A stretch of 53,563 nt of DNA from an uncultured bacterium (GTDB lineage: Bacteria; Acidobacteriota; Aminicenantia; Aminicenantales; Aminicenantaceae). Below, piece after piece: positions 19,608 through 47,095 of this stretch. The DNA is taken from positions 1 to 53,563 of the forward strand of contig CBFDDY010000001.1 in NCBI GenBank assembly GCA_965603705.1, given 5' to 3'. The position numbers and the translations under genes were made by a program. Position 1 is the stretch's first letter. Each line of letters opens with the position of its first letter. A model generated the notes under the pieces. The model made no database searches and was not told where the DNA came from. It worked only from the letters and a program-made list of their open reading frames with translations.

Positions 19608-22031
19608 TTATTCATACTTTAAATTTTCAATAGGATTGATACTTGTTGCTTTAATTGTCTGGAAACTAACTGCAAATAATGCAATAGCAAAAGAAGCAAC
19701 AGCAGCCAGCAGAAAAACCTCTATCCCCATATTTGTACGATAAGCAAAGCCCTGCAGCCATTTGTTCATAAAATAGTAAGCAAAAGGCCAGGCAATGATA
19801 TTTGAAATCAGCACTAATTTTATAAAATTACTTATTAAGTTATTGAAAATGCCAAAACTGGAAGATCCTAATACCTTTCTAATACCAATTTCTTTCCTTC
19901 TTCTTTCAACCATAAAAGAAGCTAATCCAAACAGGCCCAATCCGGCAATTAAGATAGATAATATAAAAAAAACGCTGAGTATTTTACTGAGTTTTATTTC
20001 TTTTTGATAAAGTTTGTTAAAATCTTCATCAAGAAAAGAGTATTCAAATGGCTGGTCACCTGTTGCAGCTTTCCATTTTTTTTCAATTTTTCCTATTGTT
20101 CCCTTTAAATCATCAGATTGTATTTTAAGGGAGAGATAAAAGCCCCCGCTATTATTTCCAAGATTGCGGATTATCATTGGCTGAATTTGGTAATATAAAG
20201 ATTGGAAGTGAAAATCCTTCAGCACTCCTATTATAGTTACATATTCCCCTTTTTTGGCATTGTCATATTCTTTTAGAAGTCTTTTTCCGAGAGGATTGGT
20301 TAAGCCAAGTTCATTTACAGCTGCCTCATTAATAACCACTGCCTGAGTTTTATCAGAAAATATATCCGGTGAAAAATATCTCCCCTTCACAATCTTGAGG
20401 TCTAATAATTTTGCGTAATTATGATCTGCATACATTGTAAAGAGGGTATACTCCTCACTTAATGGTCTATTTTCCAGGCGATGCCCATTGGGATCAAAAT
20501 GTCTTCCAGGTAAAGAAGAAGTGTTTGAAACAGACAAAATATCAGGATACATTGCCAAATCCTGGATGAAGTCATCCAAATTATTACCTAAAGCAGTATT
20601 TGCTCGATGAAGAACTAATATTTGATTTTGGTTAAAACCTAATTTTGTATCCTGAACAAATTTGGTCTGTTTAAAAACCATAAATATGCCTAATAAAATT
20701 ATTATTGAAATAGTAAATTGGAATATAACTAATCCACTCCTTAGATTTTTACCTTTAAATCCTATCCTGCTAGCTCCATTAAAAATATCGGCCGGCTGAA
20801 AGGATGAAAGATAAAATGCAGGGTATATTCCGGCAACAATACCCACTAATAAGGCAACGCCAATCAAACCCAGTAAAATTAACGGATTTTCAAAATATTT
20901 TAGGACTAATTTTTCATCAATCAGATTATTATAATAGGGTTTTAAAATATCAATAATAATTATGGCACACAGCATAGAAATAAAGCTGAGTAAAATTGAT
21001 TCTGCCAGGAATTGACGGATAATTGAAGCTTTACTTGATCCGATCATTTTACGTAATCCAATTTCATTAGCTCGATTTACAGATTTTGCAGTAGATAAAT
21101 TAATAAAATTAATACAGGCAATAATTAAAATAAAAATTGCTATAATAGAAAAAATATAGACATAGTTCATATTCCCTTTATTAGGCAGATTGTCATTAAT
21201 ATTTGCATTGAGATGAATATCTTTTATCGGTTGTAACCAAAGCTCATACAGATTATTCTGATCTCTGAAAAATTCTTCTATACTTTTACCATATTCCAGT
21301 TGAATTAATTCTCCCAAATTCTTTTTAATAAAATCTGGGAATTTACTCTCCAATCGGGCAGGAGAATAATCAGGAGGCAGTACTATGTAGGTAAATAGGC
21401 AGTGACTCCCCCATCCTCCCCATTCGTCAAAATTAGCAGTGGTAATATAATCATATTGAAGATTTGAGTTAAAAGGACAATTGTTTACTACTCCGGTTAC
21501 TTGAAAGAGGTTTTCTGGGTTTTGAATATAAATGGATTCACCAACCGGATTTTTATCTCCAAAATATTTTTTAGCAATTTTTTCTGTTAAAACAACACTC
21601 CTGGGATTTAATAGAGCGGTTTTTGAATTACCCTTTAAAAAGGGGATTGTAAAGACATCAAAAATGGCTGGATCAGCATAGAGTCTTTTGTTTTCCAGGA
21701 ATTTTTTATCCTTGTAACCGACCAGTCTAATGTATGAACTTGAAATTAACCTTGTGGCCTGTAAAACTTCAGGAAAATCATTTAAAAGGGCCGCAGCTAA
21801 AGGAGGAGGGCTCCAGCTCGTTTTTATTCTACTGGCTTCAACTACAGGTCCTACTCGATAAATCCACTCTGCTTTTTCATGATATTTATCAAAACTCAAT
21901 TCATTATGTACCCATAAATAAATAAGGATACAAACAACCATCCCAACTGCCAGGCCTAAAATGTTAATCAAGGAATAAATTTTATGTTTTTTAATATTTC
22001 GAAAAGCAATTTTCAAATAATTTTTAAGCAT
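19608..22031 (-). CDS. Duplicated FtsX/MacB-type ABC permease, paralogue 1 (last gene of the long operon)
   Basis: 807 aa. N-terminus MLKNYLKIAFRNIKKHK plus TM1. Two FtsX blocks, each with the cytoplasmic R-x-x-E-I-G-x-R-K motif (NRANEIGLRKMIG; RRKEIGIRKVLG), each preceded by a large periplasmic domain. C-terminus NPIENLKYE*. Confidence 0.9.
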   Translation of the reverse strand: MLKNYLKIAFRNIKKHKIYSLINILGLAVGMVVCILIYLWVHNELSFDKYHEKAEWIYRVGPVVEASRIKTSWSPPPLAAALLNDFPEVLQATRLISSSYIRLVGYKDKKFLENKRLYADPAIFDVFTIPFLKGNSKTALLNPRSVVLTEKIAKKYFGDKNPVGESIYIQNPENLFQVTGVVNNCPFNSNLQYDYITTANFDEWGGWGSHCLFTYIVLPPDYSPARLESKFPDFIKKNLGELIQLEYGKSIEEFFRDQNNLYELWLQPIKDIHLNANINDNLPNKGNMNYVYIFSIIAIFILIIACINFINLSTAKSVNRANEIGLRKMIGSSKASIIRQFLAESILLSFISMLCAIIIIDILKPYYNNLIDEKLVLKYFENPLILLGLIGVALLVGIVAGIYPAFYLSSFQPADIFNGASRIGFKGKNLRSGLVIFQFTISIIILLGIFMVFKQTKFVQDTKLGFNQNQILVLHRANTALGNNLDDFIQDLAMYPDILSVSNTSSLPGRHFDPNGHRLENRPLSEEYTLFTMYADHNYAKLLDLKIVKGRYFSPDIFSDKTQAVVINEAAVNELGLTNPLGKRLLKEYDNAKKGEYVTIIGVLKDFHFQSLYYQIQPMIIRNLGNNSGGFYLSLKIQSDDLKGTIGKIEKKWKAATGDQPFEYSFLDEDFNKLYQKEIKLSKILSVFFILSILIAGLGLFGLASFMVERRRKEIGIRKVLGSSSFGIFNNLISNFIKLVLISNIIAWPFAYYFMNKWLQGFAYRTNMGIEVFLLAAVASFAIALFAVSFQTIKATSINPIENLKYE

Positions 22032-22059
22032 TTTTACCTCCCAAAAAATTGCTCAATCA
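22032..22059 (-). repeat. Conserved 28-nt inter-paralogue spacer, copy 1
   Basis: ttttacctcccaaaaaattgctcaatca. Nearly identical to 24430-24457 and 26801-26828. Contains the GGGAG/GGAGG ribosome-binding site of the downstream permease. Confidence 0.8.
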
Positions 22060-22110: not shown

Positions 22111-24429
22111 CTATTCATAGCGCAAGGATTCCACCGGGTTGGCTCGGGCTGCTTTGATAATTTGCAAACTTATGGTAAAAACAGCAATGATCATAGCCAG
22201 GCCACCGGAAACAACAAAGAAAACCCAACCGATTTCAATTTTATAAGCATATGATTGGAGTAACTTATTCATGAGAAGCCAGGTCAGGGGCCAGGCAATT
22301 AACATGGCATAAACCACCCATTTAATAAAATTTTTGGATAGTAATATTAACAGACCGGCCGTTGATGAGCCCAAAACTTTTCGAATCCCGATCTCCTTGG
22401 TCTTCCTCTGGGAAAAAATTGAGGCCAGCCCAAACAGCCCCATACAGGAAATAATAATGGCTAATATGCTAAAATATTTAAAAAGAGTCCCCATCCTTTC
22501 TTCGGTAATATAAAGGAGGTCAATCTGCTCACTTAGAAAATTGTACTCAAAGGGGTAATTATCTGAATGGATTTTCCATTGACCTTTAATAAATTCTAAT
22601 GTAGCTGGAATATTATGCCCCTTAATTTTAATACAGGCCCAGGGATTATGGGAGGATAACCTCATGGCCATAGGTATAATCTCATTCCGTAAAGACTCAA
22701 AATTATAATCTTTAATAACGCCAATAATGGTTCTTTTGTTATCCCATAACTGTAACCACTTTCCTACTGGAGATTTTATTCCCATGGCCCTGACCGCTGC
22801 TTCATTCACTACCCAGGCTTCATTAGTATCTGTTAAATGCTCAGAAGAAAAAAACCGTCCACTCACAATTTTCAATCCGAAGGTTTTTGCATAATCATAA
22901 TCCACTGTAGTCTCTACCATCTTTATCTTGGTATACTCCTGTCCCTGCCATAGGACATCTCCCAGACCGGCATTAGTATTCCAGCGATAAGGGGGGATAT
23001 TGGTGGTGGTTATATTAACAACATCGCTATGACCTAAGATAGTATTCTTAAAGGCAGAAAAAGATTTTATCCGGTCACCTGCCCGAAAGGTTACCACATG
23101 CTCTTTATCAAAACCAAGGGGTACATTCCGTAGATATTCCAATTGTTTAGAAAGTACCAGAGTACCAAAAATTAGAGCAATTGAGAGAATAAACTGAAAT
23201 ACAACCAGTCCCTTCCCGAATACTGCTCCTTTAGTCCCTTTGCTCAGAATGCCTTTTAATGTGTCAACCGGTTTAAAGGAGGATATAACAAAGGCTGGAT
23301 AACTACCCGCCATTAATCCGGATAATAACAATAATCCAATAATCCCGGACATAACCGGCCACTTTACTAAACTCTCAAAGGTAAACTGTTCTCCTACCAG
23401 CATATTAAACTCAGGCAAGAATAATCTAAGAACTACCAGCCCCCCTAACCAGGCAATAAAAATCAATAAAAACGTTTCGATAAAAAATTGGGTCACCAAC
23501 TCTTTTTTATGGGCACCAATGGTTTTTCTCATTCCCACTTCTTTCATTCTCAGAGAAGACTGGGCAGTGGATAAATTTATAAAATTGATACAGGCGATCA
23601 AGAGGATAAAGATGGCAATTATTAAAAATGTTGTCACAATGGTTATTCTACCGCCACCATGGAGCTGGTAGAGATGCAATCGGGTAATCGGCCGAAGTAA
23701 TAGTGTTCGTGATTCCTGCTTATCAAATTCCTTTACCAGATGGGCAATTTTTTTATTAACTGATCCCAGATCTGCTTCCGGATGCAGCTGAACATAAGTT
23801 TGATGCCAGTTGGTTTCCCAGTTATTTAAATCCCGACCCATCTGACTGTGTAATTCAAACGGTAATAAAAACTTAAACTGAATATGTGAAGTGATTGGAT
23901 AATCTTTAATAACTCCGGTAATATTAAAATCCCTTCCATAGACAGTCAAGGTTTTTCCCAAGGAATCTTTATTACCAAAGTATTTGCTGGCAAAGGATTC
24001 AGTCAACACAATGCTCATTGGTTGTTTAAGAGCTGCTTGAGGATCCCCTTTATAAAAATTGAGGGTAAACATATCAAGAAAAGAGGGATCAACAAAAGCC
24101 CCCCCACTTTCCATCATCTCCTTATTTTGGTATTTAAATTTGGTTCTTCCTGCATAACAAAATCTGGAGGCATTAAGGATTTGAGAATATTCACTTTTTA
24201 AAAAATTTGCCAATGCCGGGGGAGTAACATTGCTGCCATTGCTAAAGTAAGCACCATAAAGGTAATTTGAATTTTCATGAAAGCGATCATAACTCAGTTG
24301 ATTCTGTACCCAAAGAAATATCAGTCCACAACAGGCAATTCCCACTCCCAATCCCACGATGTTAATAAAAGAAAATCCTTTCCGTTTTTTAAAATTCCTA
24401 AAAGCAATTATCAAATAATTCCTAAGCAT
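22111..24429 (-). CDS. Duplicated FtsX/MacB-type ABC permease, paralogue 2
   Basis: 772 aa. MLRNYLIIAFRNFKKRK. Motifs MKEVGMRKTIG and TKEIGIRKVLG. Ends NPVESLRYE*. Confidence 0.9.
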   Translation of the reverse strand: MLRNYLIIAFRNFKKRKGFSFINIVGLGVGIACCGLIFLWVQNQLSYDRFHENSNYLYGAYFSNGSNVTPPALANFLKSEYSQILNASRFCYAGRTKFKYQNKEMMESGGAFVDPSFLDMFTLNFYKGDPQAALKQPMSIVLTESFASKYFGNKDSLGKTLTVYGRDFNITGVIKDYPITSHIQFKFLLPFELHSQMGRDLNNWETNWHQTYVQLHPEADLGSVNKKIAHLVKEFDKQESRTLLLRPITRLHLYQLHGGGRITIVTTFLIIAIFILLIACINFINLSTAQSSLRMKEVGMRKTIGAHKKELVTQFFIETFLLIFIAWLGGLVVLRLFLPEFNMLVGEQFTFESLVKWPVMSGIIGLLLLSGLMAGSYPAFVISSFKPVDTLKGILSKGTKGAVFGKGLVVFQFILSIALIFGTLVLSKQLEYLRNVPLGFDKEHVVTFRAGDRIKSFSAFKNTILGHSDVVNITTTNIPPYRWNTNAGLGDVLWQGQEYTKIKMVETTVDYDYAKTFGLKIVSGRFFSSEHLTDTNEAWVVNEAAVRAMGIKSPVGKWLQLWDNKRTIIGVIKDYNFESLRNEIIPMAMRLSSHNPWACIKIKGHNIPATLEFIKGQWKIHSDNYPFEYNFLSEQIDLLYITEERMGTLFKYFSILAIIISCMGLFGLASIFSQRKTKEIGIRKVLGSSTAGLLILLSKNFIKWVVYAMLIAWPLTWLLMNKLLQSYAYKIEIGWVFFVVSGGLAMIIAVFTISLQIIKAARANPVESLRYE

Positions 24430-24457: not shown

Positions 24458-26800
24458 TTATTCATACCTCAATGAATCGACGGGATGGGCCATGGCAACT
24501 CTGATTGCTTGATAACTAACAGTAAAAAGAGCAATAATTAAAGCAATCAGGGAGGATGATAGAAACACCCATATTCCTATATTGGTCTTATAGGCAAAAC
24601 TCTTCAGCCAATTTGACATCACATAATATGCCAGGGGCCAGGCAAAAATATTTGCGAGTAGAACCCATTTTATAAATTGTTTATTTAACAAGACTACAAT
24701 CCCAGATATTGAAGCCCCTAAGACTTTCCTGACACCGATTTCTTTTGTCCGCTTCTCTGACATAAAGGATGCTAGACCAAACAAACCCAGACAGGATATA
24801 AAAATTGCCAAAAAAGCAAAATAGCCGATCATTTGCCCCATCTTTTGTTCAGACTGGTATAAAATATTCATTTCCTGATCCAAAAAAGAGTAAGTATAGG
24901 GATATTGAGGAGCTAGAGCAGTGGTTTCTTCTCTAATAAATTGAAGGGTTTGGGGAATGTTTTGAGGAGCGATTTTAATAAAAATATATCTCAATGCATT
25001 CCAGTTACGGGGATGGACTGTAAAGACTTGAGGCATGATTTCACGATGCAGAGGAACATGATGATAATTTTTTACTACTCCGATGATGATTCCCTCAATT
25101 CCCCAGAAAGACAATCGTTTTCCCACTGGATTTTTCATGCCCATATATTCTACTGCTTTTTCATTAATGATATATTTATTTATGTCTGCAGCATTATTGT
25201 ATCTAAAGCTCCGCCCATCAGTAATTTTCATTCCAAAGGTTTCCAGATAATCAGGAAGGGAAATGGAATACCGCATAAGAGGTGAAAATTGTGGATCTTT
25301 TCCATCCCATTTAATCCCGCTGGTCTTATAGTCCTCATTATAAGGGACAGATTGGCCAGCTGTAACCTGTAAAACACCCGTATTTTGGGCCAGGATGTTT
25401 TTATATTTTTTTAATTCATGGAGCAAGCTTTTGTTAATAGGAATTTTTATTATATTGTCTGTTGAGAATCCTAAAGGTCGATTCTTAACAAAATTCAACT
25501 GCTTAAAAATGATTACCATGCCCATAATAAGGATAACCGAAATAGCAAACTGACCTACTACTGAAACAATTCTGAATCGTGATCTTCTCCCAACTTTCTC
25601 TCCCGATCCTTTCAGGGAGTCCACTGGTTTCAACCGGGTTAAAAAGAAAGCTGGATAAATTCCCGCCAGAATCCCTACCAGTAAAATCACCGGCAGTAAA
25701 AAAAGAATCATGGAATAATTTTGAAATAGATAAAAGGAGAGTTGTTTATTAGTAAGATTATTTAAAAGAGGTAGAAAAAGCCATACCAGAATGAGTGAGA
25801 ACAGGAAGGAAACCAGGGAGATCAATACCGATTCAGTTAAAAATTGTTTAATAAGTTGTCCTTTCCGTGCTCCAGCTACTTTTCTCAAGCCCACTTCACG
25901 GGCTCGGTTTGCTGACCGGGAAGTAGCCAGGTTTGTGTAATTTGCACAAGCGATGAACAAAATAAAAACTGCAACTAAGAAAAAAATGGTAACATAGGTT
26001 TTGCCTCCAAAACCAAGGTGAACCTTGGTGATTGGCAATAAACCCAGCTGAAAAGACATGCGGGAATTATAGGGCATTTTTTTATTCATAAAACCGGCAA
26101 TTTTATCCTTGAACTGGAGCAGGTTTGTCTTTTGAGAGAGTAAAACATAGGATGGATCCCGCCAGTTCCAATCGTTTTCCAGTCCCTGTTGGAGAGGGAT
26201 AATAAAATCCGGTTGCAAATGAGAGTTGTCTGGTATATGGATAACACCGGTGACGGTCAGGTTTCTTTGGTTATTTAGATTCAATATTTTCCCCATGGGA
26301 TTCTCATTGCCAAAATACTTTTCAGCAATATCTTCACTGATTACCACCGAATTTTGTGCTTTTAAGGCACTCCCAGCTGTACCTTTAATAAAGGGGAATG
26401 AAAACATAGAGAAAAAATGCTTGTCCACCAGATCAATATTGGATTCATTAAAAATTACCATCGGGCCATTATCTGGCCTATATTTAAAAAAGGATTGGAC
26501 CTGATTTCCATATTCATAAATGCGTGTGAAACCGTCTATCTCCGAATATTCATCTGCCATTAAAGGGGCCAGAGCATAGGGCACATTACGATCCACAATC
26601 CCATTTTGATGGGTAATAGTTAACAGATAAAGGTTGTCTTTTTTTTTATGGAATTTATCAAAACCAAGCTCATCCTGAACCCAGAGAGTAATTAGAATAA
26701 AGCAGGCCAGTCCTACTGCCAATCCTGTAATATTGATAAATGAGTAACCTTTATATTTTTTTATATTTCGCAGTGCGATCTTTAAATAATTTTTAATCAT
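24458..26800 (-). CDS. Duplicated FtsX/MacB-type ABC permease, paralogue 3
   Basis: 780 aa. MIKNYLKIALRNIKKYK. Motifs AREVGLRKVAG and TKEIGVRKVLG. Ends HPVDSLRYE*. Confidence 0.9.
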   Translation of the reverse strand: MIKNYLKIALRNIKKYKGYSFINITGLAVGLACFILITLWVQDELGFDKFHKKKDNLYLLTITHQNGIVDRNVPYALAPLMADEYSEIDGFTRIYEYGNQVQSFFKYRPDNGPMVIFNESNIDLVDKHFFSMFSFPFIKGTAGSALKAQNSVVISEDIAEKYFGNENPMGKILNLNNQRNLTVTGVIHIPDNSHLQPDFIIPLQQGLENDWNWRDPSYVLLSQKTNLLQFKDKIAGFMNKKMPYNSRMSFQLGLLPITKVHLGFGGKTYVTIFFLVAVFILFIACANYTNLATSRSANRAREVGLRKVAGARKGQLIKQFLTESVLISLVSFLFSLILVWLFLPLLNNLTNKQLSFYLFQNYSMILFLLPVILLVGILAGIYPAFFLTRLKPVDSLKGSGEKVGRRSRFRIVSVVGQFAISVILIMGMVIIFKQLNFVKNRPLGFSTDNIIKIPINKSLLHELKKYKNILAQNTGVLQVTAGQSVPYNEDYKTSGIKWDGKDPQFSPLMRYSISLPDYLETFGMKITDGRSFRYNNAADINKYIINEKAVEYMGMKNPVGKRLSFWGIEGIIIGVVKNYHHVPLHREIMPQVFTVHPRNWNALRYIFIKIAPQNIPQTLQFIREETTALAPQYPYTYSFLDQEMNILYQSEQKMGQMIGYFAFLAIFISCLGLFGLASFMSEKRTKEIGVRKVLGASISGIVVLLNKQFIKWVLLANIFAWPLAYYVMSNWLKSFAYKTNIGIWVFLSSSLIALIIALFTVSYQAIRVAMAHPVDSLRYE

Positions 26801-33929: not shown

Positions 33930-33933
33930 TAGG

Positions 33934-36947: not shown

Positions 36948-37160
36948 TTACTTTTTTACCCGGTACAGAACTGCCCCTAGATACCCTGATTCATTGATTT
37001 CTGCTATATACAATCCTGGCTGGTAATGAGAGCGAATTGATAATTTTGATTCTGATAATTCATTTAAGAGACTGGCTGGCGAGTGGCTACCATTTGCATT
37101 ATAGAGGAAAAAACTTTCTGTCTCCTCCTCCAGTTTGGTCAGTATATCTTTAAGACTCAT
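36948..37160 (-). CDS. Hypothetical 70-aa soluble protein embedded in the efflux operon
   Basis: ORF with GGGAG 6 nt upstream of its ATG, lying between ATPase copy 2 and paralogue 7. No TM segment and no recognisable motif (MSLKDILTKLEEETESFFLYNANGSHSPASLLNEL...). Confidence 0.45.
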   Translation of the reverse strand: MSLKDILTKLEEETESFFLYNANGSHSPASLLNELSESKLSIRSHYQPGLYIAEINESGYLGAVLYRVKK

Positions 37161-37215: not shown

Positions 37216-37905
37216 CTACAAATGAAACTCCTCCTTGACATTTTCTGTGACAATATGGCCGTCAAATAGATGGATTACTCTCTGGCTATATTCAGCATAG
37301 ACCGGCGAGTGAGTCACCATTATTATGGTGGTCCCTTCCTCATGCAACTGGGTAATTAAACTCATGACCTCTTCTCCATTCTCTGAATCAAGATTACCGG
37401 TCGGTTCATCCGCCAGGATCAATTTTGGTTTGGTCACAATAGCCCTGGCTACAGCCACCCTTTGCTGCTGACCCCCGGAGAGCTGCTGGGGAAAGTGTTT
37501 TCTGCGGGGAACCAGTTTTAACCGTTCCATCACCTCTTCCGCTGTTTTCTTCCGGTCGGTGGCTGATGCTTTTAAATACAAAAGGGGTAATTCAATATTT
37601 TCATATACTGTCAACTCATCAATGAGGTTAAAACTCTGGAAAACAAAACCAATGTTTCCCTTCCTCAAATTGGTCCTTTTCCGTTCCGGGAATTTTGCAA
37701 CATCCCCCCCCAGAAACAAGTATTCCCCTTCAGAAGGATTATCCAAAAGTCCCAGAACATTAAGAAGAGTGGATTTGCCACACCCTGAGGGGCCCATAAT
37801 AGAGACAAATTCCCCTTCCTTTACCTTCAGGTTAACATTGTTTAGCGCTGTGGTCTCAACCTCATCAGTGGTGTAAATTTTTTTCAAATTCTTTGTTTCA
37901 ATCAT
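37216..37905 (-). CDS. ABC transporter ATP-binding protein (MacB/LolD-type NBD), copy 2
   Basis: 229 aa. Walker A GPSGCGKST, LSGGQQQ, Walker B plus canonical D-loop LILADEPTGNLD, H-loop VTHS. Confidence 0.9.
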   Translation of the reverse strand: MIETKNLKKIYTTDEVETTALNNVNLKVKEGEFVSIMGPSGCGKSTLLNVLGLLDNPSEGEYLFLGGDVAKFPERKRTNLRKGNIGFVFQSFNLIDELTVYENIELPLLYLKASATDRKKTAEEVMERLKLVPRRKHFPQQLSGGQQQRVAVARAIVTKPKLILADEPTGNLDSENGEEVMSLITQLHEEGTTIIMVTHSPVYAEYSQRVIHLFDGHIVTENVKEEFHL

Positions 37906-39196: not shown

Positions 39197-39228
39197 ATTT
39201 TACTCCTGCACTTATTCACTCATTTATA

Positions 39229-39355
39229 TTCAAGAATCATGCCAAAAATTATAAAGTAAATAGAATCAACCTTTTAGAGGTTAATCCTTGAAAAATTCCC
39301 AAAAAATCCTCTTGATTATGTTTGGAAATGAACACAATCTGTCCGTTAATGAACA
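39229..39355 (-). promoter_or_regulatory. Regulatory cassette copy A: sigma-54-like -24/-12, IHF-like site and two UAS dyads, upstream of the adaptor-led operon
   Basis: Minus strand: TTGGCATGATTCTTGAA (rc of 39229-39245; fits TGGCAC-N5-TTGC apart from two mismatches, C to T and C to A). WATCAANNNNTTR match AATCAACCTTTTA at 39264-39276. Dyads TGTTCATTTCCAAACA (rc of 39319-39334) and TGTTCATTAACGGACA (rc of 39340-39355), 21 bp start-to-start. 7 mismatches in 127 positions versus copy D, by my count. Confidence 0.6.
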
Positions 39356-39387
39356 GCTTTTTAAAGGTGGAAAGGGAATCCCCAGAT

Positions 39388-41745
39388 TTATTCATAGTGG
39401 AGGGACTCAGCGGGGTTTGCCCGGGCGGCTTTGATGGCCTGGTAGCTCACGGTCAGCAGCGCGATGAGGAGGGTCGCCAACCCAGACAAAATGAATATTT
39501 CCGGGCCGATATGCGTTCTATAGGCATAACGTTCGAGGATTCTCCGCATCATGAAATAGGCAACAGGCCAGGCTATAACATTGGACAGCAACACCCATTT
39601 AGTGAAGTCTCTGGACAGCATGAATACCACGTCTTTTATGGAAGCACCCACAACCTTGCGGACGCCGATCTCTTTGGTGCGCCGTTCCGCCATAAAGGCA
39701 GTAAGGCCAAAAAGTCCGAGACTGGATATAAATAAGGCGAGCAGAGTGAAATACCCGGCAATTTTTCTCGCCTGCCTCTCTGTGGTGTAGATGTAGTTGG
39801 TGAGAACATCATTGAAGAATATGGGATTTGCCGGAGAGTCGGATTCGAATTTTGAGAAAGCTTTGTTGATGTGTTGCAAAGTCCCGGAAATGTTTTCCGG
39901 TCGTATCCTGACAAATGCAAGGGATCCGGAATCGGGCCTGAGCATGAAGACAAACGGCCTGACCTCATGATAAAGAGGCTGGAAGTGGAAGTTCTTCACA
40001 ACTCCGATGATCTTTCCTTCGTTCCGGAAAACTGACAGCCGCTTCCCGACAGGCAATTCCATTCCCATCATCTTCACCGCCTCCTCGTTCACGATGTAGG
40101 CCTCTTTTTGATCCGTGGAATATTCTCTGGAAAATGCCCGTCCTTCCATAATCTCCATATCAAGAGTGGCAAAATAATCGTATCCCACATAATCCCAGTG
40201 CATGCTCACAGTCTCATCCGGCGGCTTGCCGTCCCAGTCCACAGCGCCGACCGTAGACCCAATGTTCCATGGCCCCTGAAGACTTCTTGTCACGCCTTGG
40301 ACCTGATGATTATTCAGCAGGTCGTTCCTAAATGGCTCGAATCGCTCCTGCATTTGTTGACTCATCCGGACCATAACCAAGTTTTCTCTGTCGAATCCCA
40401 GGTCAGTGCTCATCACAAATCCGAGTTGTCTGGAGAGGACGACCGTGCTGATGATCATGATGATCGTGAGCGAAAACTGAACAACAACGAGGGTTTTGCG
40501 CAGGGAGCTCTTGATCCTGCTTCGGATCAGACCTTTAAGGATGTTCCCGGGTTGAAAGGCCGAAAGATACAGAGCCGGATAAGCTCCGGCGAGGGCTCCT
40601 GTAAACAGGGCTATTCCCAAAAAACCAAGGGCGACGACCGGTTTGAGCAGGAGACGCAGCGAAAACTGTTTTCCCAAGAGTTCATTAAACGTCGGGAGAA
40701 AGGCCGCTATAAGAGCGACCGCGATTAGCAAGGCAATGAGGGAAATCATCAGGGATTCACCGATAAACTGGCGGACAAGGTCGATCTTCCTCGCGCCGAT
40801 CACCTTGCGAACTCCGACTTCCTTTGCCCGGGTGGTCGCCTTGGCCGTGCTCAAGTTCATGAAGTTAATGCATGCGATAAGCAGAACAAAAAGGGCGATA
40901 CCAGAAAAAATCAAAAGGGATTGGATCAGACCGCCTCCTGCAGGGGAATACAAGTGTTTTTTTGTCAGGGGGTGTAGGTGAAATGTGACCTTCACATTTT
41001 CCCACTGTGCGTGTTTCTCTACGATCGTGGTGATCTTTTGCTCCACTTCAAGACGGTCAACATCCTTATGCAGCAGGACGTAGGTATTGAGCGGATTTCC
41101 TCCCCAGTGCTCAGGCTCCTTAAAATTCGGGGCAAATTTAAGGGCATAGGGCATGACGCAGTCAATCTGGAGAGAGGACTGTGTTGGGACATCCACCATG
41201 ACACCTGTGACCTGGATAACCACTTCGTTGTTCAAGGTGAGTGTTTTCCCAATGGGATCATCATTCCCAAAATATTTTTTGGCCATCTTTTCTGTCAGGA
41301 CAACGGAATAGTGCTCCGTCAGAGCCGTATCTGGATTGCCTTTTACAAAGGGAAAGGAAAAAACATCAAAGAAGCCCGGGTCGGCCAGGCCGACAGCATC
41401 GCTGGTGAATCGTTTCTCCCCATGACTTAACAACAACCCGGTTGCGTTTTCATACCGGATGGCCTCGATAACTTCTGGGCACTCCTCCTTCAGAATCTTG
41501 GCGAGGGGGTAGTAAGAGCCCATGTTTATCCGACTGCCTCCACTTGTGTTCAACATTTCGCAGTATACCTGGGAGATGTCATTCTTATTCACATGAAACC
41601 GGTCATACCCGAATTCATGCTGGACCCACAGGAAGATAAGAAGGCAAACAGCCATCCCGATAGAAAATCCCACGATGTTAATAACCGAATGAAGCGTGTG
41701 TTTTCGGATATTTCTAAGGGTCATTATGAAATAATTTTTAAACAT
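39388..41745 (-). CDS. Duplicated FtsX/MacB-type ABC permease, paralogue 8 (visibly higher G+C)
   Basis: 785 aa. MFKNYFIMTLRNIRKHT. Motifs AKEVGVRKVIG and TKEIGVRKVVG. Ends NPAESLHYE*. GGGAGGG ribosome-binding site upstream. Confidence 0.9.
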   Translation of the reverse strand: MFKNYFIMTLRNIRKHTLHSVINIVGFSIGMAVCLLIFLWVQHEFGYDRFHVNKNDISQVYCEMLNTSGGSRINMGSYYPLAKILKEECPEVIEAIRYENATGLLLSHGEKRFTSDAVGLADPGFFDVFSFPFVKGNPDTALTEHYSVVLTEKMAKKYFGNDDPIGKTLTLNNEVVIQVTGVMVDVPTQSSLQIDCVMPYALKFAPNFKEPEHWGGNPLNTYVLLHKDVDRLEVEQKITTIVEKHAQWENVKVTFHLHPLTKKHLYSPAGGGLIQSLLIFSGIALFVLLIACINFMNLSTAKATTRAKEVGVRKVIGARKIDLVRQFIGESLMISLIALLIAVALIAAFLPTFNELLGKQFSLRLLLKPVVALGFLGIALFTGALAGAYPALYLSAFQPGNILKGLIRSRIKSSLRKTLVVVQFSLTIIMIISTVVLSRQLGFVMSTDLGFDRENLVMVRMSQQMQERFEPFRNDLLNNHQVQGVTRSLQGPWNIGSTVGAVDWDGKPPDETVSMHWDYVGYDYFATLDMEIMEGRAFSREYSTDQKEAYIVNEEAVKMMGMELPVGKRLSVFRNEGKIIGVVKNFHFQPLYHEVRPFVFMLRPDSGSLAFVRIRPENISGTLQHINKAFSKFESDSPANPIFFNDVLTNYIYTTERQARKIAGYFTLLALFISSLGLFGLTAFMAERRTKEIGVRKVVGASIKDVVFMLSRDFTKWVLLSNVIAWPVAYFMMRRILERYAYRTHIGPEIFILSGLATLLIALLTVSYQAIKAARANPAESLHYE

Positions 41746-41851
41746 CGTTACCCTCCCGTAAAGCGATGCATATATAAATCCCGCTTAAAAACAGAATAGC
41801 AATCCGTTTAGGCGTCCATATTTTTTTCTTACTTTTTCGATCCATGCTCAT
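41738..41851 (-). pseudogene. Remnant of the adaptor (HlyD-type) gene 5' end, forming a 37-codon upstream ORF that overlaps the paralogue-8 start
   Basis: My translation, MSMDRKSKKKIWTPKRIAILFLSGIYICIALREGNDV*, against the adaptor N-terminus MSMDRKIKKKRWTPKRIVILSLSGLFIIFVI. Nucleotide similarity runs for ~90 nt and then stops. Its stop (TAA 41740-41738) overlaps the permease start in ATGTTTAA. Confidence 0.7.
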
Positions 41852-41883
41852 ATTTTACTTCTGCACTTTTTCATTTATTTATA

Positions 41884-42010
41884 CTCAAGAATCATGCCAA
41901 TATCTGTAAGGTAAATAGAATCAACCTTTTAGAGGTTAATCCTTGAAATATTTCCAAAAAATCCCCTTGATTATGTTTGGAGCCGAACACAATCTGTCCG
42001 TTAATGAACA
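41884..42010 (-). promoter_or_regulatory. Regulatory cassette copy B, upstream of permease paralogue 8
   Basis: Same architecture and spacing as copy A. -24/-12 is the rc of 41884-41900 (TTGGCATGATTCTTGAG). IHF-like site at 41919-41931. Dyads are the rc of 41974-41989 (TGTTCGGCTCCAAACA) and of 41995-42010 (TGTTCATTAACGGACA). Confidence 0.6.
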
Positions 42011-42041
42011 GCTTTTTAAAATTAAAGCCCATAGTGTTCCT

Positions 42042-44459
42042 TTATTCATACCGTAGACTGTTAATGGGATTGGCCAATGCGGCTTTGAGAACCTGGTAGC
42101 TGATAGTTATCATGGTAATAGCCAGTGCAATCGCTAAGGCGAAAATAAAAAACATAATATTCAGAGAGGTGCGGAAGGCAAAACCTGACAGCCACTCCCT
42201 CATCACAAAATACGCAACAGGCCACGCAATCACATTGGCAGCAATCACCCATTTGAAAAACTGCTTGGAGATAAGAATAAATATTGAGGGAGTGGAAGCC
42301 CCATGAACTTTGCGGATCCCGATCTCTTTTCTCCGCTGTTCTACAGTAAAAGAGGCTATGCCGAAGAGGCCCAAACAAGCGATAAAAAGGGCCAGAACAG
42401 TGGCAATATTGATGAGTATGCCGACCTTTCGGTCATTTTCATAAAGCTTCTCGATGGATTCATCCAGAAACTTATATTCAAAAGGATGTCCCGGGGCCAC
42501 CTTCCGCCAGATTTCTTTAAGTGTGGAAAGAATCTCCGTCAGATTCCCCGGCCGGACCTTGACTAGAAGGATGTCATAATCATCCGGTGTATAGATCATT
42601 CCAAGGGGAGCTATAGCATTGTGGAGGGTGTCAAAGTGGAAATCCTTAACAATCCCAATGATACGAAAATTACGGATCCTCTTCCCGATGGGATCCTTCA
42701 TACCTATGGCTTTGATGGTTGTCTCATTTACTATAATCGGAAGTTCTCCCTCACTTTTTTCCTCTGCTTTGAAAAACCTGCCCTCAACAAGATCTAGACC
42801 AAAAACCTTCAGATAATCATGATCAACGGATAAAAGATCCATCAAATAAGTAGCATCTGTATCCCGGCCTTCCCATTCATTCAGAGTCATAGACCTATGA
42901 TTGCCGGCGGGAGCATCGGAAGCCGCTGTAACTGCGATCGCTGCTGTGTTTCTCGAAATCTCTTTTTTTAGAACTTGAAATTTTTCATCCAGGTCTCCTT
43001 TCAGATCAAGACAGAGAATATGGTCTTTTTCGATTCCTAAATTCATGTTCCGGATATAATGCATCTGGCGGTTGATTATTACAGTCCCAATAATCAGGCA
43101 AATGGTCAGCACAAACTGAAAAACAACCAGTATTTTTCGGAACAAGCCTCCCCCGGTTCCGGATAAAGATTTCTTTTTCAGCGCTTTGATGGGCTGGAAA
43201 GAAGAGAGAAAAAGAGCAGGGTAACTGCCAGCGATCACTCCGGTAAGAGCGGCAATTCCCAGAAGGCTTAAGATAAGAGTCAGTTGAGAAGTAATCTGGA
43301 AGGTCATCTCTTTTCCGGTCAAAGAGTTGAAGGCAGGCAGCAACAACTGAGCAAGGCTTACGGCAAAAATGAGCGCCATAAAAGCCAGGAGGATGGATTC
43401 ACCAAAGAACTGGGAAATAAGATTTCCCCGCTTGGCACCAACAACTTTCCTCAATCCAACCTCAAGGGCACGGTTTTCGGATCGGGCTGTAGTCAGGTTC
43501 ATAAAATTGATGCAGGCAATCAGGAGAATAAAAAAGGCTATTAGAGAGAAAATATATACATATCTGATGTCCCCGTCCGTACCGGAAGCACGGATCCCTG
43601 TTGAGTACAGATGAACTTTTGTAAATGGCTGCAGGGAAAGTGTCATTATGGTTCCTTCATCATATTTTTTTAAAAATCCTTCAATTTGTGTATTGAATTT
43701 TAGATAATCTATTTGTTTACTCAAGAGGATATATGTATGAATTCCATAACTACCCCAATCGTCCATTTTCCAGCCATATTTTTCCAAGGAGATAAAAGGA
43801 ACCACAAAATCACATTGTATCTGGGAATTATGCGGGATGTTTTTCAGAACACCCGTGACCTGAAATTCATGTTTTCCGTCCACCTGAATGACTTGCCCGA
43901 TAGGATCCTTCCCTTTGAAGTATTTTTGAACCATCTCTTCAGTCAGAACAATGGAAGCAGGAGCCGAAAGTATTGTATCCACATTGCCTTGAAGGAGGGG
44001 AAATGTAAATATTTTGAAAAGCTCAGGATCAGCGAAGGCAAAGCCATCCTCGTAAAAGCTATTATCTCCGAACCGAACAATTCTTCCGCGGGAACGTCTA
44101 AAACGAACCGCCTCGAGGACCTGTGGATAATCTTTTTTAAAGGCAGGGCCAAAACCTGTTGGAAAGACAGGATAAGCGAGAATCCGACCGTCTGACATTT
44201 GTTCGTGCTCCACAGCTCGAAAAAGCTGATCGGCATTTTCGTGAAAGCAGTCGAAACTCAATTCATTCCAAACCCAGAGTAGAATCAGAATGCAGGAGGC
44301 CATTCCGACCGTAAGCCCAGCCAGGTTGATAAAGGAATAAGCCTTATGCCTTTTGATTTTACGGAAGGCGATTTTAATATAGCTCCATACTAGGGAAGGC
44401 TTGACATAGAAGGGATGCCAAAACGGACGACTTCTTTTTTTATTTTCAAGATCAAACAT
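42042..44459 (-). CDS. Duplicated FtsX/MacB-type ABC permease, paralogue 9 (higher G+C, N-terminal extension)
   Basis: 805 aa. Motifs ALEVGLRKVVG and RKEIGIRKVHG. Ends NPINSLRYE*. The family N-terminus appears as ...SLVWSYIKIAFRKIKRHK without a Met and is preceded by a basic 22-24-aa extension (MFDLENKKRSRPFWHPFYVKP). GAGGTG ribosome-binding site before the ATG at 44459. Confidence 0.85.
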   Translation of the reverse strand: MFDLENKKRSRPFWHPFYVKPSLVWSYIKIAFRKIKRHKAYSFINLAGLTVGMASCILILLWVWNELSFDCFHENADQLFRAVEHEQMSDGRILAYPVFPTGFGPAFKKDYPQVLEAVRFRRSRGRIVRFGDNSFYEDGFAFADPELFKIFTFPLLQGNVDTILSAPASIVLTEEMVQKYFKGKDPIGQVIQVDGKHEFQVTGVLKNIPHNSQIQCDFVVPFISLEKYGWKMDDWGSYGIHTYILLSKQIDYLKFNTQIEGFLKKYDEGTIMTLSLQPFTKVHLYSTGIRASGTDGDIRYVYIFSLIAFFILLIACINFMNLTTARSENRALEVGLRKVVGAKRGNLISQFFGESILLAFMALIFAVSLAQLLLPAFNSLTGKEMTFQITSQLTLILSLLGIAALTGVIAGSYPALFLSSFQPIKALKKKSLSGTGGGLFRKILVVFQFVLTICLIIGTVIINRQMHYIRNMNLGIEKDHILCLDLKGDLDEKFQVLKKEISRNTAAIAVTAASDAPAGNHRSMTLNEWEGRDTDATYLMDLLSVDHDYLKVFGLDLVEGRFFKAEEKSEGELPIIVNETTIKAIGMKDPIGKRIRNFRIIGIVKDFHFDTLHNAIAPLGMIYTPDDYDILLVKVRPGNLTEILSTLKEIWRKVAPGHPFEYKFLDESIEKLYENDRKVGILINIATVLALFIACLGLFGIASFTVEQRRKEIGIRKVHGASTPSIFILISKQFFKWVIAANVIAWPVAYFVMREWLSGFAFRTSLNIMFFIFALAIALAITMITISYQVLKAALANPINSLRYE

Positions 44460-44495: not shown

Positions 44496-44573
44496 CTACA
44501 ATGAGGGCAAAGGCCTCCAGAGTGTTAAAAGATCCTTATATACCCTCATCCAGGGACGCCTCTCCATGCTCAT
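44496..44573 (-). other. 25-codon upstream ORF in the leader of paralogue 9, starting with the adaptor gene's first three codons
   Basis: ATGAGCATGGA (rc of 44563-44573) matches the adaptor start ATGAGTATGGA. After that the sequence is unrelated (MSMERRPWMRVYKDLLTLWRPLPSL*). Whether it is translated is unknown. Confidence 0.3.
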
Positions 44574-44605
44574 ATTTTAGTCCTGTACTTTTTCCCTCAT
44601 TTACA

Positions 44606-44734
44606 ATCAAGAATCATGCCAAAAATTATAACGTGAATAGAATCAAGCCTTTAGAGGTTAATCGTTAATTAAATTTACAAAAAAATCCTCTTGATCATGT
44701 TTGGAAACGAACACAATCTGTCCGTATATGAACA
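44606..44734 (-). promoter_or_regulatory. Regulatory cassette copy C, upstream of permease paralogue 9
   Basis: -24/-12 is the rc of 44606-44622 (TTGGCATGATTCTTGAT). IHF-like AATCAAGCCTTTA at 44641-44653. Dyads are the rc of 44698-44713 (TGTTCGTTTCCAAACA) and of 44719-44734 (TGTTCATATACGGACA), 21 bp apart. Confidence 0.6.
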
Positions 44735-44746
44735 GCTTTTTAAAAA

Positions 44747-47095
44747 TTATTCGTATCTCAAACTTTTAATCGGGTTTGCAATTGCCGCTTTAATGGATTG
44801 GTAGCTCACTGTCAAAAAAGAAATCAAGATTGCAGCAAATGCAGCAATTAAAAATGTAACAATCCCAATATTTATTTTGTAAGCAAAGGTTTGCAGCCAT
44901 TTATTCATTGCAAAATAGGAGATAGGCCAGGCAATAACAATTGCAATGAATACCCATTTTGTAAATTGTTTTGTCAACATACTTACAATTTCCGGAACAG
45001 ATGCCCCCATAACTTTTCTAACACCAATTTCTTTGGTTCTCTGAATTGTGGAAAAAGAAGCCAAACCAAATAAACCAAGACAGGCGATAAATAAGGCAAG
45101 TAAGGCAAAAAATGTAAAAATACTCTCCACTTTTTTTTCAAGTTTGTAGGAAGAATTAAAAACATCATCAAAGAATTTATATTCGAATGGATAATTGGGA
45201 GAAAATTTTGCTATTGTTTCTCGAATAAATGTTACTGTTTTTGGGACATCTTTTTCTTTTGCTTTAATAGATAAATTTCGATTTGCTCTTTCCGGATTTA
45301 AATCCAAACAGATCGGCTGAATGGATTCATGAAGCGGCAACATGTGAAAATCTTTGACAATCCCGACAATTTTCCCGCTTCTTCCTCCTAAAAAATGTTT
45401 AAATTCTTTACCAACCGGATTTTCCAAGCCGATTTCCTTAACAGCAATTTCATTTAAGAGGAAAGCTCCGGTAGCATCAGAGGAAAAGTCTTTGGAAAAA
45501 TTTCTACCTTCCACGATTTTAATCTCATAAAGATCAACATAATTATAATCTATAAAGTTTATAAAAATTTCTTGTTTTTTATCTTCTGGTTTTCCAGGCC
45601 AATCTGCAAGAGTTGCAGCCCCGGATTCATTTGGTAAATCAAAACAGGAAGAAACGGCTAAAATATTTGGATTTTTTTCTAATTCATTTTTAATCGATTC
45701 AATATTGCTTCGGAGTTTGTTGTCGCGAATATCGACTACGATAATATGGTCTTTGACAAAACCAACATCTTTATTGCGAATGAAATACATCTGATCTTTG
45801 ATAGTCAATGTGGCAATAATTAGAATGATGGAAATCATAAATTGACCAACAACAAGGCTGTTACGCAGTTTTGATCTTTTTGTACCTGCAATTTGATTTC
45901 GAAAAGTTGTCATTGGATTAAAGGTTGAAATGGCGAAAGCAGGATATCCTCCGGCAATGACACTTACAAAAATTAGCAACACAATTAGCCAGGATAAAAA
46001 TTGCATGTTTTCGAATAGGTTAAAATTCAAATTCCGTTCTGCAAAAACATTGAATGAAGGCAATAATAGCCAAACCAAAATGGTTGCCAGAAAAAAAGCT
46101 AAAATCGAAAAAAGGATCGATTCTCCTAAAAACTGTTTAATCAATTGAGGCCTGGTTGAGCCAATCACTTTGCGAATTCCGATCTCTTTCATCCGTTGAG
46201 CAGAACGTGCAGTAGCCAAATTTATGTAGTTTATACAAGCGATGATCAGGATTAAAATGGCAACGGAAGTTAGTAAATAGATTAGTTTGACTTGATCTGA
46301 TTGCAAATGAATTTTAGTAAGAGGTTGAAATTCAAATTGTATTTGTTTGGCGGTTTCTTCATCAAAATGTTTTGTTATTAGACTTGGAATTTTACTTTCT
46401 AAATCTTTCAGATTTGATTCTTTATTTAATAAAATATAGGTGCGATAAGAACTATATCTCCAGGATTTATGATCATGAAATGAATCTATTATTTGAGTCG
46501 TTTTAAATGGCGCAAGAAAATCGACAGTAAGAATAGAATTGTCCGGCAAATCTTTCAAAATTCCTGTTATTTTAAAATCATGTTCACTTTTATAGCTGAT
46601 ATTTTTCCCGATTGGATTTTCATTTCCGAAATATTTTTTCGCCATCGATTCTGAAATCACTACAGAATTAGGATCATCCAAGACTGTTTGAGGATCTCCT
46701 TCTAAGAGTTCAAATGAAAAAATGTCAAATGTCTCAGGATCGGTAAAACAGAAACCGTTTTCAAAAAAATTCTTATCTTTATAAGAAATGAAGATTTTCC
46801 CAGTTCGATAAAACCTGGTTGCTGATTCAACCTCTGGAAATTCTGCTTTAAGGGTGGGAGCAAGTGGAGGTTGAGTAAGATTGGAGAGTCGATCAGAACC
46901 TTGTTGGCCTTGTAAAATCCGATAAATTCGATCAGCATTTTTATGATATTTATCAAAACTAATTTCAAACTGAACTAAGAGTAAAATTAAAATCACAGCG
47001 GTGAGCCCTAAAGCTAATCCCGCAATATTGATAAAGGAATATCCTTTGTGTCTTTGAATATTCCTGAATACGATTTTAAGATAATTTTTGAACAT
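44747..47095 (-). CDS. Duplicated FtsX/MacB-type ABC permease, paralogue 10
   Basis: 782 aa. MFKNYLKIVFRNIQRHK. Motifs MKEIGIRKVIG and TKEIGVRKVMG. Ends NPIKSLRYE*. Lies 83 nt downstream of the TolC-type gene with no intact cassette in between. Confidence 0.9.
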   Translation of the reverse strand: MFKNYLKIVFRNIQRHKGYSFINIAGLALGLTAVILILLLVQFEISFDKYHKNADRIYRILQGQQGSDRLSNLTQPPLAPTLKAEFPEVESATRFYRTGKIFISYKDKNFFENGFCFTDPETFDIFSFELLEGDPQTVLDDPNSVVISESMAKKYFGNENPIGKNISYKSEHDFKITGILKDLPDNSILTVDFLAPFKTTQIIDSFHDHKSWRYSSYRTYILLNKESNLKDLESKIPSLITKHFDEETAKQIQFEFQPLTKIHLQSDQVKLIYLLTSVAILILIIACINYINLATARSAQRMKEIGIRKVIGSTRPQLIKQFLGESILFSILAFFLATILVWLLLPSFNVFAERNLNFNLFENMQFLSWLIVLLIFVSVIAGGYPAFAISTFNPMTTFRNQIAGTKRSKLRNSLVVGQFMISIILIIATLTIKDQMYFIRNKDVGFVKDHIIVVDIRDNKLRSNIESIKNELEKNPNILAVSSCFDLPNESGAATLADWPGKPEDKKQEIFINFIDYNYVDLYEIKIVEGRNFSKDFSSDATGAFLLNEIAVKEIGLENPVGKEFKHFLGGRSGKIVGIVKDFHMLPLHESIQPICLDLNPERANRNLSIKAKEKDVPKTVTFIRETIAKFSPNYPFEYKFFDDVFNSSYKLEKKVESIFTFFALLALFIACLGLFGLASFSTIQRTKEIGVRKVMGASVPEIVSMLTKQFTKWVFIAIVIAWPISYFAMNKWLQTFAYKINIGIVTFLIAAFAAILISFLTVSYQSIKAAIANPIKSLRYE

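Follow-up and report, generated by a model that had tools for sequence, protein, structure and literature searches.

Contig CBFDDY010000001.1, from an uncultured bacterium of the Aminicenantales, carries a large cluster of genes for predicted ATP-binding cassette (ABC) transporter parts. The stretch of it that was analysed (positions 1-53,563 of the forward strand; 53,563 nucleotides (nt)) is called the window below. The part from 19608 to 47095 holds ten intact permease open reading frames (ORFs) of 769-807 aa, all on the minus strand. The array is not unbroken, as the genes of an adaptor, ATPase A, the small protein orf70 and ATPase B fall between the permease genes. An earlier reading of this sequence (the original prediction) had described ten ORFs of ~800 aa that follow one internally duplicated plan and share two ATPases, one adaptor, one outer-membrane factor and a dedicated regulator, and all of these parts were found at the locus by domain searches. 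In addition, we describe orf70, a gene with a beta-lactamase fold, four promoter modules, a core that occurs with varying permeases across genomes and the turnover of gene cassettes, none of which were part of that reading.

Permeases and partner proteins

Domains were called with Pfam at gathering scores and families with NCBIfam at curated cut-offs. By its domains, perm1 (19608-22031; 807 aa) is predicted to be a fused Type VII ABC permease with eight transmembrane (TM) segments, two MacB_PCD and two FtsX domains. The same architecture was found in perm2 (22111-24429; 772 aa), perm3 (24458-26800; 780 aa), perm4 (26829-29189; 786 aa), perm5 (29246-31561; 771 aa), perm6 (31590-33950), perm7 (34618-36927; 769 aa), perm8 (39388-41745; 785 aa), perm9 (42042-44459; 805 aa) and perm10 (44747-47095; 782 aa). 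The longest ORF of perm6 starts with TTG and encodes 786 aa, while the conserved N-terminus begins at an ATG 21 nt downstream, a few nt beyond the stop codon of ATPase B. An N-terminal extension of 22 aa is present in perm9, and perm2 is 64% identical to a permease of a related locus (L007).

All ten proteins scored above the gathering threshold for both MacB_PCD, with E values of 1e-28 to 1e-36, and FtsX, with 1e-20 to 1e-28. Two stretches per protein were matched by FtsX (PF02687) in 10/10 and by MacB_PCD (PF12704) in 8/10, and a second periplasmic domain was apparent in all ten from a MAFFT alignment and an AlphaFold2 model. The alignment showed eight hydrophobic segments in the order TM1, periplasmic domain 1, TM2-4, TM5, periplasmic domain 2 and TM6-8, as the original prediction had stated. 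Moreover, the N-terminal and C-terminal halves of each permease were detectably alike (BLAST, E 1e-4 to 1e-13). The predicted cytoplasmic motif was found as R-x-x-E-[IV]-[GA]-x-[RM]-K in 18 of the 20 half-sites when the search was relaxed at two positions (G is replaced by A in perm6, and R by M in perm4); the remaining two start with K. The NPxxSLRYE C-terminus, exact or with one or two residues changed, is present in 10/10.

The model of perm10 was built from 66 sequences (predicted local distance difference test (pLDDT) 87.9; predicted template modelling score 0.82) and has eight TM helices, all of them long, and two periplasmic domains rich in beta structure. When it was compared with the PDB using Foldseek, the best whole-chain match was Escherichia coli YbbP (9ge6_A; E 3e-19, TM-score 0.48), followed by MacB, Spr0694-5, LolCDE, BceAB and HrtB. 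The matches to YbbP, MacB, LolCDE, BceAB and HrtB all had a probability of 1.00. In the model, the R-x-x-E-I/V-G-x-R-K motifs map to short helices between TM2/3 and TM6/7, which correspond to coupling helices, and the conserved C-terminus and its counterpart in the N-half form short helices after TM8 and TM4. The most conserved stretches of the ten permeases are the elements that would contact the nucleotide-binding domains (NBDs), namely the coupling helices and the post-TM4 and post-TM8 helices. Pfam domains, model and Foldseek matches agree with the proposal that each permease is a pseudo-dimer, fused into one chain, with the Type VII ABC fold of MacB/LolCE/FtsX, which we regard as a confident structural prediction.

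Of the partner proteins, all encoded on the minus strand, ATPase A (37216-37905; 229 aa) and ATPase B (33934-34605; 223 aa) are ABC NBDs, the latter of MacB/LolD type. They are 54% identical to each other, and in both the motifs Walker A, LSGGQ, Walker B and H-loop are intact. The periplasmic adaptor (37937-39196; 419 aa) is a membrane-fusion protein with an N-terminal TM anchor and passed the cut-off of TIGR01730 (RND_mfp; 125.9 bits against 94.9). The outer-membrane factor (47179-48738; 519 aa) has a signal peptide and carries the OEP repeat twice (E 1e-46). Between ATPase A and perm7 lies orf70 (36948-37160), which encodes a soluble protein of 70 aa.

For comparison we used 80 related loci (at least 80 species-level genomes), which were found with the adaptor, viewed 10 kb to each side and annotated with hidden Markov models built from the window proteins. 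The ATPase next to the adaptor was of type A in 66/66 loci (68-85% identical to window A), and 22 of the 29 second ATPases were of type B (65-82% identity to window B), commonly encoded directly before the channel gene. The two ATPases are therefore not a redundant pair but belong to ancient and distinct orthogroups. Even the minimal loci with one permease, L017 and L051, encode both A and B, which fits an A/B heterodimer on an asymmetric fused permease.

orf70 was found in 20/80 related loci, usually directly after ATPase A. Its 25 homologues are annotated only as hypothetical proteins, and their C-terminus is nearly invariant (QPGLYIAEINxxGYLGxVLYRVK). The AlphaFold2 model is confident (pLDDT 92.8). 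Searches of orf70 gave no Pfam or NCBIfam family, and nothing of similar structure was found in the PDB (best E = 1).

The ten permeases are roughly equidistant from each other, with pairwise identities of 34-42%. Mean pairwise identity was 46% for the TM and cytoplasmic parts and 31% for the periplasmic domains, so that the stronger divergence of the periplasmic domains, first judged by eye, is borne out by a region-split identity matrix. Because such a gap is normal for the permease family, we also made the comparison at matched divergence; this replaced dN/dS per domain, since synonymous sites are saturated at 34-42% amino-acid identity. At matched TM/cytoplasmic identities of 44-52%, the periplasmic domains were ~42% identical within the perm10 subfamily, compared to 31-32% between the window paralogues or across subfamilies. 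The periplasmic domains are thus kept within a subfamily and differ disproportionately between paralogues, which is consistent with specialisation. The G+C content at third codon positions (GC3) of the permease genes spans 0.26 to 0.60. A recent local tandem duplication was rejected because the paralogues are equidistant and their composition is heterogeneous.

Among curated families, the best NCBIfam model for 10/10 permeases was ADOP ('Acidobacterial duplicated orphan permease'; TIGR03434), matched end to end over model positions ~5-803 (E 1e-79 to 1e-94). The scores of 267-317 bits are all under the cut-off of 622.3, so that the likeness to ADOP that had been proposed holds as best-matching curated family, whereas membership does not. 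The permeases share with ADOP the internal duplication, the length of ~800 aa and the large paralogous sets (ten here), but their genes stand together with those of an adaptor, a channel and two ATPases, and they do not have the N-terminal permease prefix of the PadR-linked relatives described below. The ADOP family is commonly described as orphans without an adjacent or fused ABC ATPase gene. The array in the window, with two ATPases inside, does not fit this description, while the nearest relatives of perm10 on other contigs do. On these scores, the ten permeases are best described as an ADOP-like sister clade outside the family as curated.

The second match of the permeases was DarB (102-171 bits; cut-off 700). 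The best NCBIfam matches of the ATPases and the adaptor were DarD and DarC, respectively, again under the cut-offs: the ATPases scored 250 and 269 bits on DarD (375) and the adaptor 207 bits on DarC (450). Of the families with an assigned function, those of Dar thus match the ATPases and the adaptor best, and also the permeases once ADOP, which has no assigned function, is set aside. DarBCD, which exports darobactin (NF038008, NF038010 and NF038007), resembles the window system in its fused ~777-aa double-FtsX permease, its membrane-fusion adaptor and its separate ATPase, and deletion of darB, darC or darD reduces export 2-4 fold (PMC8442675). However, it has one permease, one ATPase and a cluster for a peptide of the ribosomally made, post-translationally modified kind (RiPP), with no dedicated channel gene. 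The window has ten permeases with two types of ATPase, its own channel gene and predicted sigma-54 control, and Pfam scans of the cluster and the flanking ORFs gave no radical-SAM, precursor peptide or other biosynthetic gene. We consider the proteins DarB-like in architecture and, judged by score, outside the curated Dar families.

With MacAB-TolC the locus shares a Porter/Sabre-type periplasmic domain between TM1 and TM2, a TM2/3 coupling helix, and an adaptor and TolC-like channel. As in tripartite pumps, the adaptor and the outer-membrane factor are encoded alongside the ABC transporter. MacB itself is a homodimer of 4-TM subunits with an N-terminally fused NBD, whereas each window permease joins two 4-TM units head to tail in one chain (8 TM), with NBDs that are proteins of their own and of two kinds (223 and 229 aa). 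MacB works by mechanotransmission, and a review of its family draws no topology with an 8-TM direct fusion (PMC5985334). YbbAP (PDB 9GE6/9GE7) is similar in having a pseudo-symmetric fused permease with two periplasmic domains, two coupling helices and separate NBDs. YbbP is a fused Type VII permease of 10 TM that binds two YbbA NBDs through the two coupling helices, giving an NBD-to-permease ratio of 2:1, and the complex works without adaptor or channel, with the hydrolase TesA docked on its periplasmic domains (PMC12646458). The difference lies in two linker helices (TM5-6) of YbbP, compared to the 8 TM of the window permeases. YbbP was found by the fold search alone; a PDB sequence search gave no match to it at E<=0.01, and NF041854 (YbbAP type) matched none of the window proteins.

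A similar array has been described in Psychroflexus torquis, where eight to ten ADOP paralogues form a 42-kb cluster in genomic island GI-43 with further transporter genes, some of them for ATP-binding proteins. This cluster is highly expressed and efflux was suggested for it; the account reports no analysis of a regulator, promoter or shared core (PMC3914696). That cluster, which we compared with the window by its published description, belongs to the Bacteroidota and lies in a genomic island with transposases. A literature search gave no relevant account of TIGR03434, PadR-linked acidobacterial FtsX permeases or sigma-54-linked MacB/FtsX paralogues.

Predicted sigma-54 promoter modules and variable cassettes

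Upstream of the adaptor, perm8, perm9 and beta-lactamase-like genes we found four minus-strand intergenic copies of one module of 180-250 nt. Copy 1 (39116-39365) reaches ~80 nt into the adaptor coding sequence and carries the -24/-12 element TTGGCATGATTCTTGA at 39230-39245. In copy 2 (41771-42020) the element lies at 41885-41900, accompanied by a remnant of ~95 nt of adaptor 5' coding sequence. Copies 3 (44563-44742) and 4 (50604-50788) have it at 44607-44622 and 50642-50657, respectively. The 16-mer TTGGCATGATTCTTGA is exact in all four modules (4 occurrences, compared to 1.1 expected at up to 3 mismatches). Each module also contains the palindromes TGTTC-N6-GGACA and TGTTC-N6-AAACA, 21 bp apart, and between these activator sites and the -24/-12 element an inverted repeat of 11 pairs, AGGATTAACCTCTAAAAGGTTGATTCT (39262-39288 and 41917-41943 on the minus strand, with near-identical copies in the remaining two modules), which might bind a second regulator or bend the DNA.

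A search with the strict consensus TGGYAY-N5-TTGCW gave one match only, upstream of the regulator gene. The module promoters were missed because their -12 element reads TTGA, the form in all four copies being TGGCAT-N5-TTGA. Among the related loci, TGGCA[CT]-N5-TTGC is present ~40 nt upstream of the adaptor start in ~55/80 and also precedes permease genes that are placed before the adaptor. Pairs of TGTYC-N6-GRACA sites with a spacing of 21 bp were found at about -90/-69 or -145/-124 in 16 of the 21 loci checked, and 4/4 window modules have such pairs as well.

A sigma-54 response regulator with receiver, AAA+ Sigma54_activat and HTH_8 domains is encoded divergently at 50836-52218 on the plus strand, followed on the same strand by a histidine kinase (52215-53558; 447 aa). 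The activator gene is adjacent in 41 of the 59 related loci with enough upstream sequence, and the kinase gene is linked to the transporter genes in 41/56. The canonical sigma-54-contact motif of activators is GAFTGA; the corresponding loop reads GSFTDA in the window and G[AS]FTDA in every one of the 43 orthologues examined. Two adjacent N-terminal TM helices (residues ~7-59) of the kinase have essentially no periplasmic loop or sensor domain between them, and in this it resembles intramembrane-sensing kinases such as those of BceAB-type transporters. The sigma-54-type -24/-12 match TGGTATTGATCTTGCT (50798-50813, plus strand), 23 nt upstream of the activator gene, suggests autoregulation. Reverse-strand matches of this type, counted at any position in the locus, occurred in 15/80 related loci. 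No rpoN gene was found within the window.

The regulator that had been proposed is thus present and is linked to the array by conserved promoter and activator-site motifs. From the spacing of the genes, four transcription units were predicted, each behind a promoter module: the beta-lactamase-like gene, the outer-membrane factor and perm10 (unit 1); perm9 (unit 2); perm8 (unit 3); and the adaptor, ATPase A, orf70, perm7, ATPase B and perm6 to perm1 (unit 4). With promoter, upstream sites and adjacent activator all present, the locus is a predicted sigma-54/enhancer-binding-protein regulon.

Three contigs (L084-L086; Joint Genome Institute samples 3300033141, 3300033145 and 3300033148) are 94-97% identical to the window with the same gene order, except that perm8 and the beta-lactamase-like gene are missing. 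The variable segments are 39366-41771 and 48816-50702. The first, with perm8, is bounded by direct repeats of 250 nt that are 89% identical to each other; each consists of the promoter module and the first ~95 nt of the adaptor gene, and module copies 1 and 2 are the two arms. The second holds the gene of a serine hydrolase with a beta-lactamase fold (48834-50597, minus strand; 587 aa), which is exported, with a signal peptide, and has an SxxK motif (SITK) and an uncharacterised C-terminal region of ~230 aa. This hydrolase could be a detoxifying partner of a pump; besides the near-identical strain, almost all related loci are without it.

In the related strain (L084), the canonical promoter (TGGCATATTTATTGC) and the activator site before the channel gene are intact. 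In the window, this promoter is reduced to its 3' half (CCTATTTATTGC; 48804-48815, minus strand) beside the inserted beta-lactamase-like gene and a copy of the module. The GC3 of perm8 (0.60) and of the beta-lactamase-like gene (0.56) differs from that of the rest of the cluster (0.26-0.45; ATPase A 0.48). The absence from the 94-97% identical contigs, the direct repeats around perm8 and the deviating GC3 of both variable genes all indicate that permease genes and the exported hydrolase gene are gained or lost as promoter-tagged cassettes.

Related loci with and without permeases

The recurrent order in the related loci is kinase and activator (divergent), then adaptor, ATPase A, (orf70), a number of permeases, ATPase B and channel. 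Between 0 and 5 permeases were counted inside the 10-kb view, and in 18 of 45 loci the downstream flank held at least three full-length permease genes, suggesting that larger arrays are probably common beyond this view. In assembly JBDLJQ01 (MAG103), three contigs (L008, L010 and L012) each begin with adaptor, ATPase A, orf70 and permease, a case of a genome with several core copies.

Seven loci (L019, L043, L049, L050, L057, L058 and L069) have the adaptor, A, (orf70), B and the channel with no permease within 10 kb on either side and no room for one. Directly after the channel gene of L057 lies a TldD/PmbA metallopeptidase gene pair (6331-9225), and ORFs of similar size occupy this position in L058, L051 and L047.

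The opposite situation was found for the closest relatives of perm10 (81% and 60% identity). These permeases stand behind PadR regulators, with no ATPase within 10 kb; the PadR-family genes directly precede them at L001 3676-9270 and L003 9675-12574. They have retained the invariant coupling-helix residues and score 293-298 bits on TIGR03434 (P0002 and P0004; cut-off 622.3). An extra N-terminal extension of ~75 aa, absent from all ten window permeases, is present in these relatives, and that of the 60% relative (L003) weakly matches the NCBIfam model 'permease prefix domain 2' (NF038404). PadR regulators typically govern detoxification and efflux genes.

Action in trans is the simplest explanation for cores that lack permeases and permeases that lack a core. 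This is the strongest argument, though an indirect one, for the modular idea of the original prediction, and it may also account for the orphan status of ADOP-type genes. Together with the PadR-linked orphans at 81% identity and the presence or absence of a permease at strain level, the permease-less cores lend good indirect support to the use of one core by interchangeable permeases; physical sharing by all ten would go one step further.

The linkage of the permeases to ATPases, adaptor, channel and regulator had been called unusual, which it is not: the module is conserved in at least 80 species-level genomes of several phyla. The perm10 homologues and the loci found with the adaptor come overwhelmingly from metagenome-assembled genomes of Candidatus Aminicenantes or Acidobacteriota, and a minority from Neomarinimicrobiota, Calditrichia, Chrysiogenales, Krumholzibacteriota and Zixiibacteriota. 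The nearest genomes carry either of the first two labels, and NCBI treats Aminicenantota as a candidate phylum of its own. The adaptor is only 66% identical to that of the nearest species-level genome. An association with Bacteroidota, also made in the original prediction, does not hold for the window, whose close relatives are all Aminicenantes-type genomes, although multi-copy ADOP genes are documented in that phylum, with 28-33 copies of ADOP-like permeases in Dyadobacter (PMC11573002). The module therefore occurs widely among uncultivated lineages, and the literature searched has essentially no description of it, so that the window is informative rather than unique.

Possible working of the cluster and alternative explanations

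Based on these data we think it reasonably probable that the locus encodes a MacAB-TolC-like Type VII efflux system under sigma-54/two-component control, in which one common core serves ten alternative permeases. ATPase A, ATPase B, the adaptor, the outer-membrane channel and orf70 would be the common parts. Each permease would dock two NBDs through its two coupling helices and the short post-TM4 and post-TM8 helices. By analogy to MacAB-TolC, YbbAP and LolCDE, ATP binding and hydrolysis would close the stalk helices and thereby move both periplasmic domains (mechanotransmission), which would drive substrates drawn from the periplasm, or from the inner membrane's outer leaflet, into the adaptor/channel duct. 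The ten divergent pairs of periplasmic domains would set ten substrate ranges. For control, the histidine kinase would phosphorylate the sigma-54 activator, which would bind the TGTYC-N6-GRACA pairs and fire the four units, and permease genes would come and go as cassettes with promoter-module repeats at their boundaries. Control by an intramembrane-type kinase and sigma-54, the PadR pairing of relatives and the acquired serine hydrolase suggest a defence against varied envelope-active compounds more than the export of a single product. The substrates would then most likely be membrane-active or envelope-targeting toxic compounds, such as antimicrobial peptides or lipophilic toxins. Gene content, fold, motifs, the pattern of conservation, the regulatory sites and the variation between genomes and strains come from the data directly, while the physical sharing of ATPases, adaptor and channel among the ten permeases, how and in which direction they transport, what their substrates are and a possible A/B heterodimer are inferred.

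Several points weigh against this model. The binding of any permease to ATPase A or B, the adaptor or the channel is inferred, and so are the substrates of every member. YbbAP, the best structural match, operates without adaptor or channel (PMC12646458). In more distant loci (Neomarinimicrobiota), A was the only ATPase seen, beside a single permease, so that B is not universally required and A alone may also suffice, and the model gives no reason for two conserved ATPase orthogroups. Weaker conservation of periplasmic domains is usual for the permease family, and the external sequences in the matched-divergence comparison were picked by full-length score to perm10, which favours periplasmic similarity. 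Finally, the -12 element in the window is TTGA, while the canonical one is TTGC.

One alternative is that only one or a few permeases, for instance of the perm7 or perm8 type that directly follows ATPase A in minimal loci, form a tripartite pump, and that the rest are stand-alone extractors like LolCDE or YbbAP-TesA, which use the ATPases and pass substrates on, possibly to the beta-lactamase-fold hydrolase. YbbP, which needs no adaptor or channel and carries a hydrolase (PMC12646458), the secreted serine hydrolase in a predicted common transcription unit, and the single permease between A and B in L017 and L051, to the latter of which perm8 is 52% identical, would all agree with this. We nevertheless consider such a division rather unlikely. 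The hydrolase is missing in the near-identical strain and almost all related loci, which argues against a core partner, all ten permeases share a promoter module or an operon with adaptor and channel, and no sequence feature separates adaptor-binding from non-binding permeases. The array might also export products made by the cell itself (peptides, glycolipids or siderophores), as DarBCD, DevBCA-HgdD and PvdRT-OpmQ do. This is in line with the Dar families as leading function-assigned matches (after ADOP for the permeases), with the many MacB-type pumps that move endogenous products (PMC5985334, PMC12646458) and with the TldD/PmbA peptidase pair after the channel gene in L057 and the similar-sized ORFs in L058, L051 and L047. 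Since the Dar scores are far under the equivalog cut-offs, no precursor peptide, radical-SAM or other biosynthetic gene was detected in the cluster or its flanks by Pfam scans, close relatives are paired with PadR regulators, and ten divergent permeases with variable cassettes suit changing external substrates better, we regard export of own products as improbable.

It is equally improbable, in our view, that the ten permeases are largely redundant, a neutral result of horizontal acquisition and recombination at the module repeats, with periplasmic differences that reflect drift. The heterogeneous GC3 (0.26-0.60), the presence of perm8 in some close strains only and the general lack of constraint on periplasmic domains, the least constrained part of the family, point in this direction. 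On the other hand, all ten ORFs are intact and have kept the NBD-contact motifs, multi-permease arrays are conserved across phyla, and periplasmic identity stays at ~42-47% within a subfamily over deep divergence but not between subfamilies, which argues for purifying selection on subfamily-specific features. A further idea is that co-sensing with the histidine kinase is the main task of one or more permeases, as in the flux sensing of BceAB-BceS, where the transporter signals its load to an intramembrane-sensing kinase. A kinase with two TM helices and no periplasmic sensor domain, the linkage of kinase and transporter genes in 41/56 loci and the appearance of BceAB among the Foldseek matches would suit this. 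However, the kinase is not a BceS homologue by any match, its partner is a sigma-54 activator and not an OmpR-type regulator, and the ten permeases would be left unexplained. Co-sensing as the main role thus has little likelihood; it is compatible with the shared-core efflux model and does not replace it.

Beyond the locus itself, the core (adaptor, A, orf70, B and channel, with the sigma-54 activator and kinase) may be a trans-acting engine for a genome-wide and rapidly exchanged pool of fused permeases, including the PadR-linked ADOP-type orphans. We put this forward as a tentative idea, held with less confidence than the efflux model. In Acidobacteria-related and Bacteroidota genomes, few paralogous families of unexplained role are as large as the fused double-FtsX permeases, which are annotated as orphans with neither an ATPase nor an assigned function. 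If true, a trans-acting engine would explain how large families of orphan permeases are powered in Acidobacteria-related bacteria and in those of the Fibrobacterota-Chlorobiota-Bacteroidota group. It would amount to a combinatorial efflux repertoire of 'one motor, many heads', in which heads are gained and lost as promoter-tagged cassettes. If the core is indeed shared, this would be a modular route to diversified efflux specificity. The comparison of loci provides a wiring diagram for it, in which a two-ATPase core with adaptor, channel and orf70 carries a sigma-54 signature and the permeases lie inside it, beside it or away from it under PadR. The locus in the window also offers defined parts, ten permeases and one core, for heterologous reconstitution and substrate screening.

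Downstream of perm1, the region 9763-19164 (minus strand) encodes a secreted transglutaminase-like protein of 722 aa, a protein of 1315 aa with VWA domains, an OmpR-type response regulator and a histidine kinase of 805 aa.

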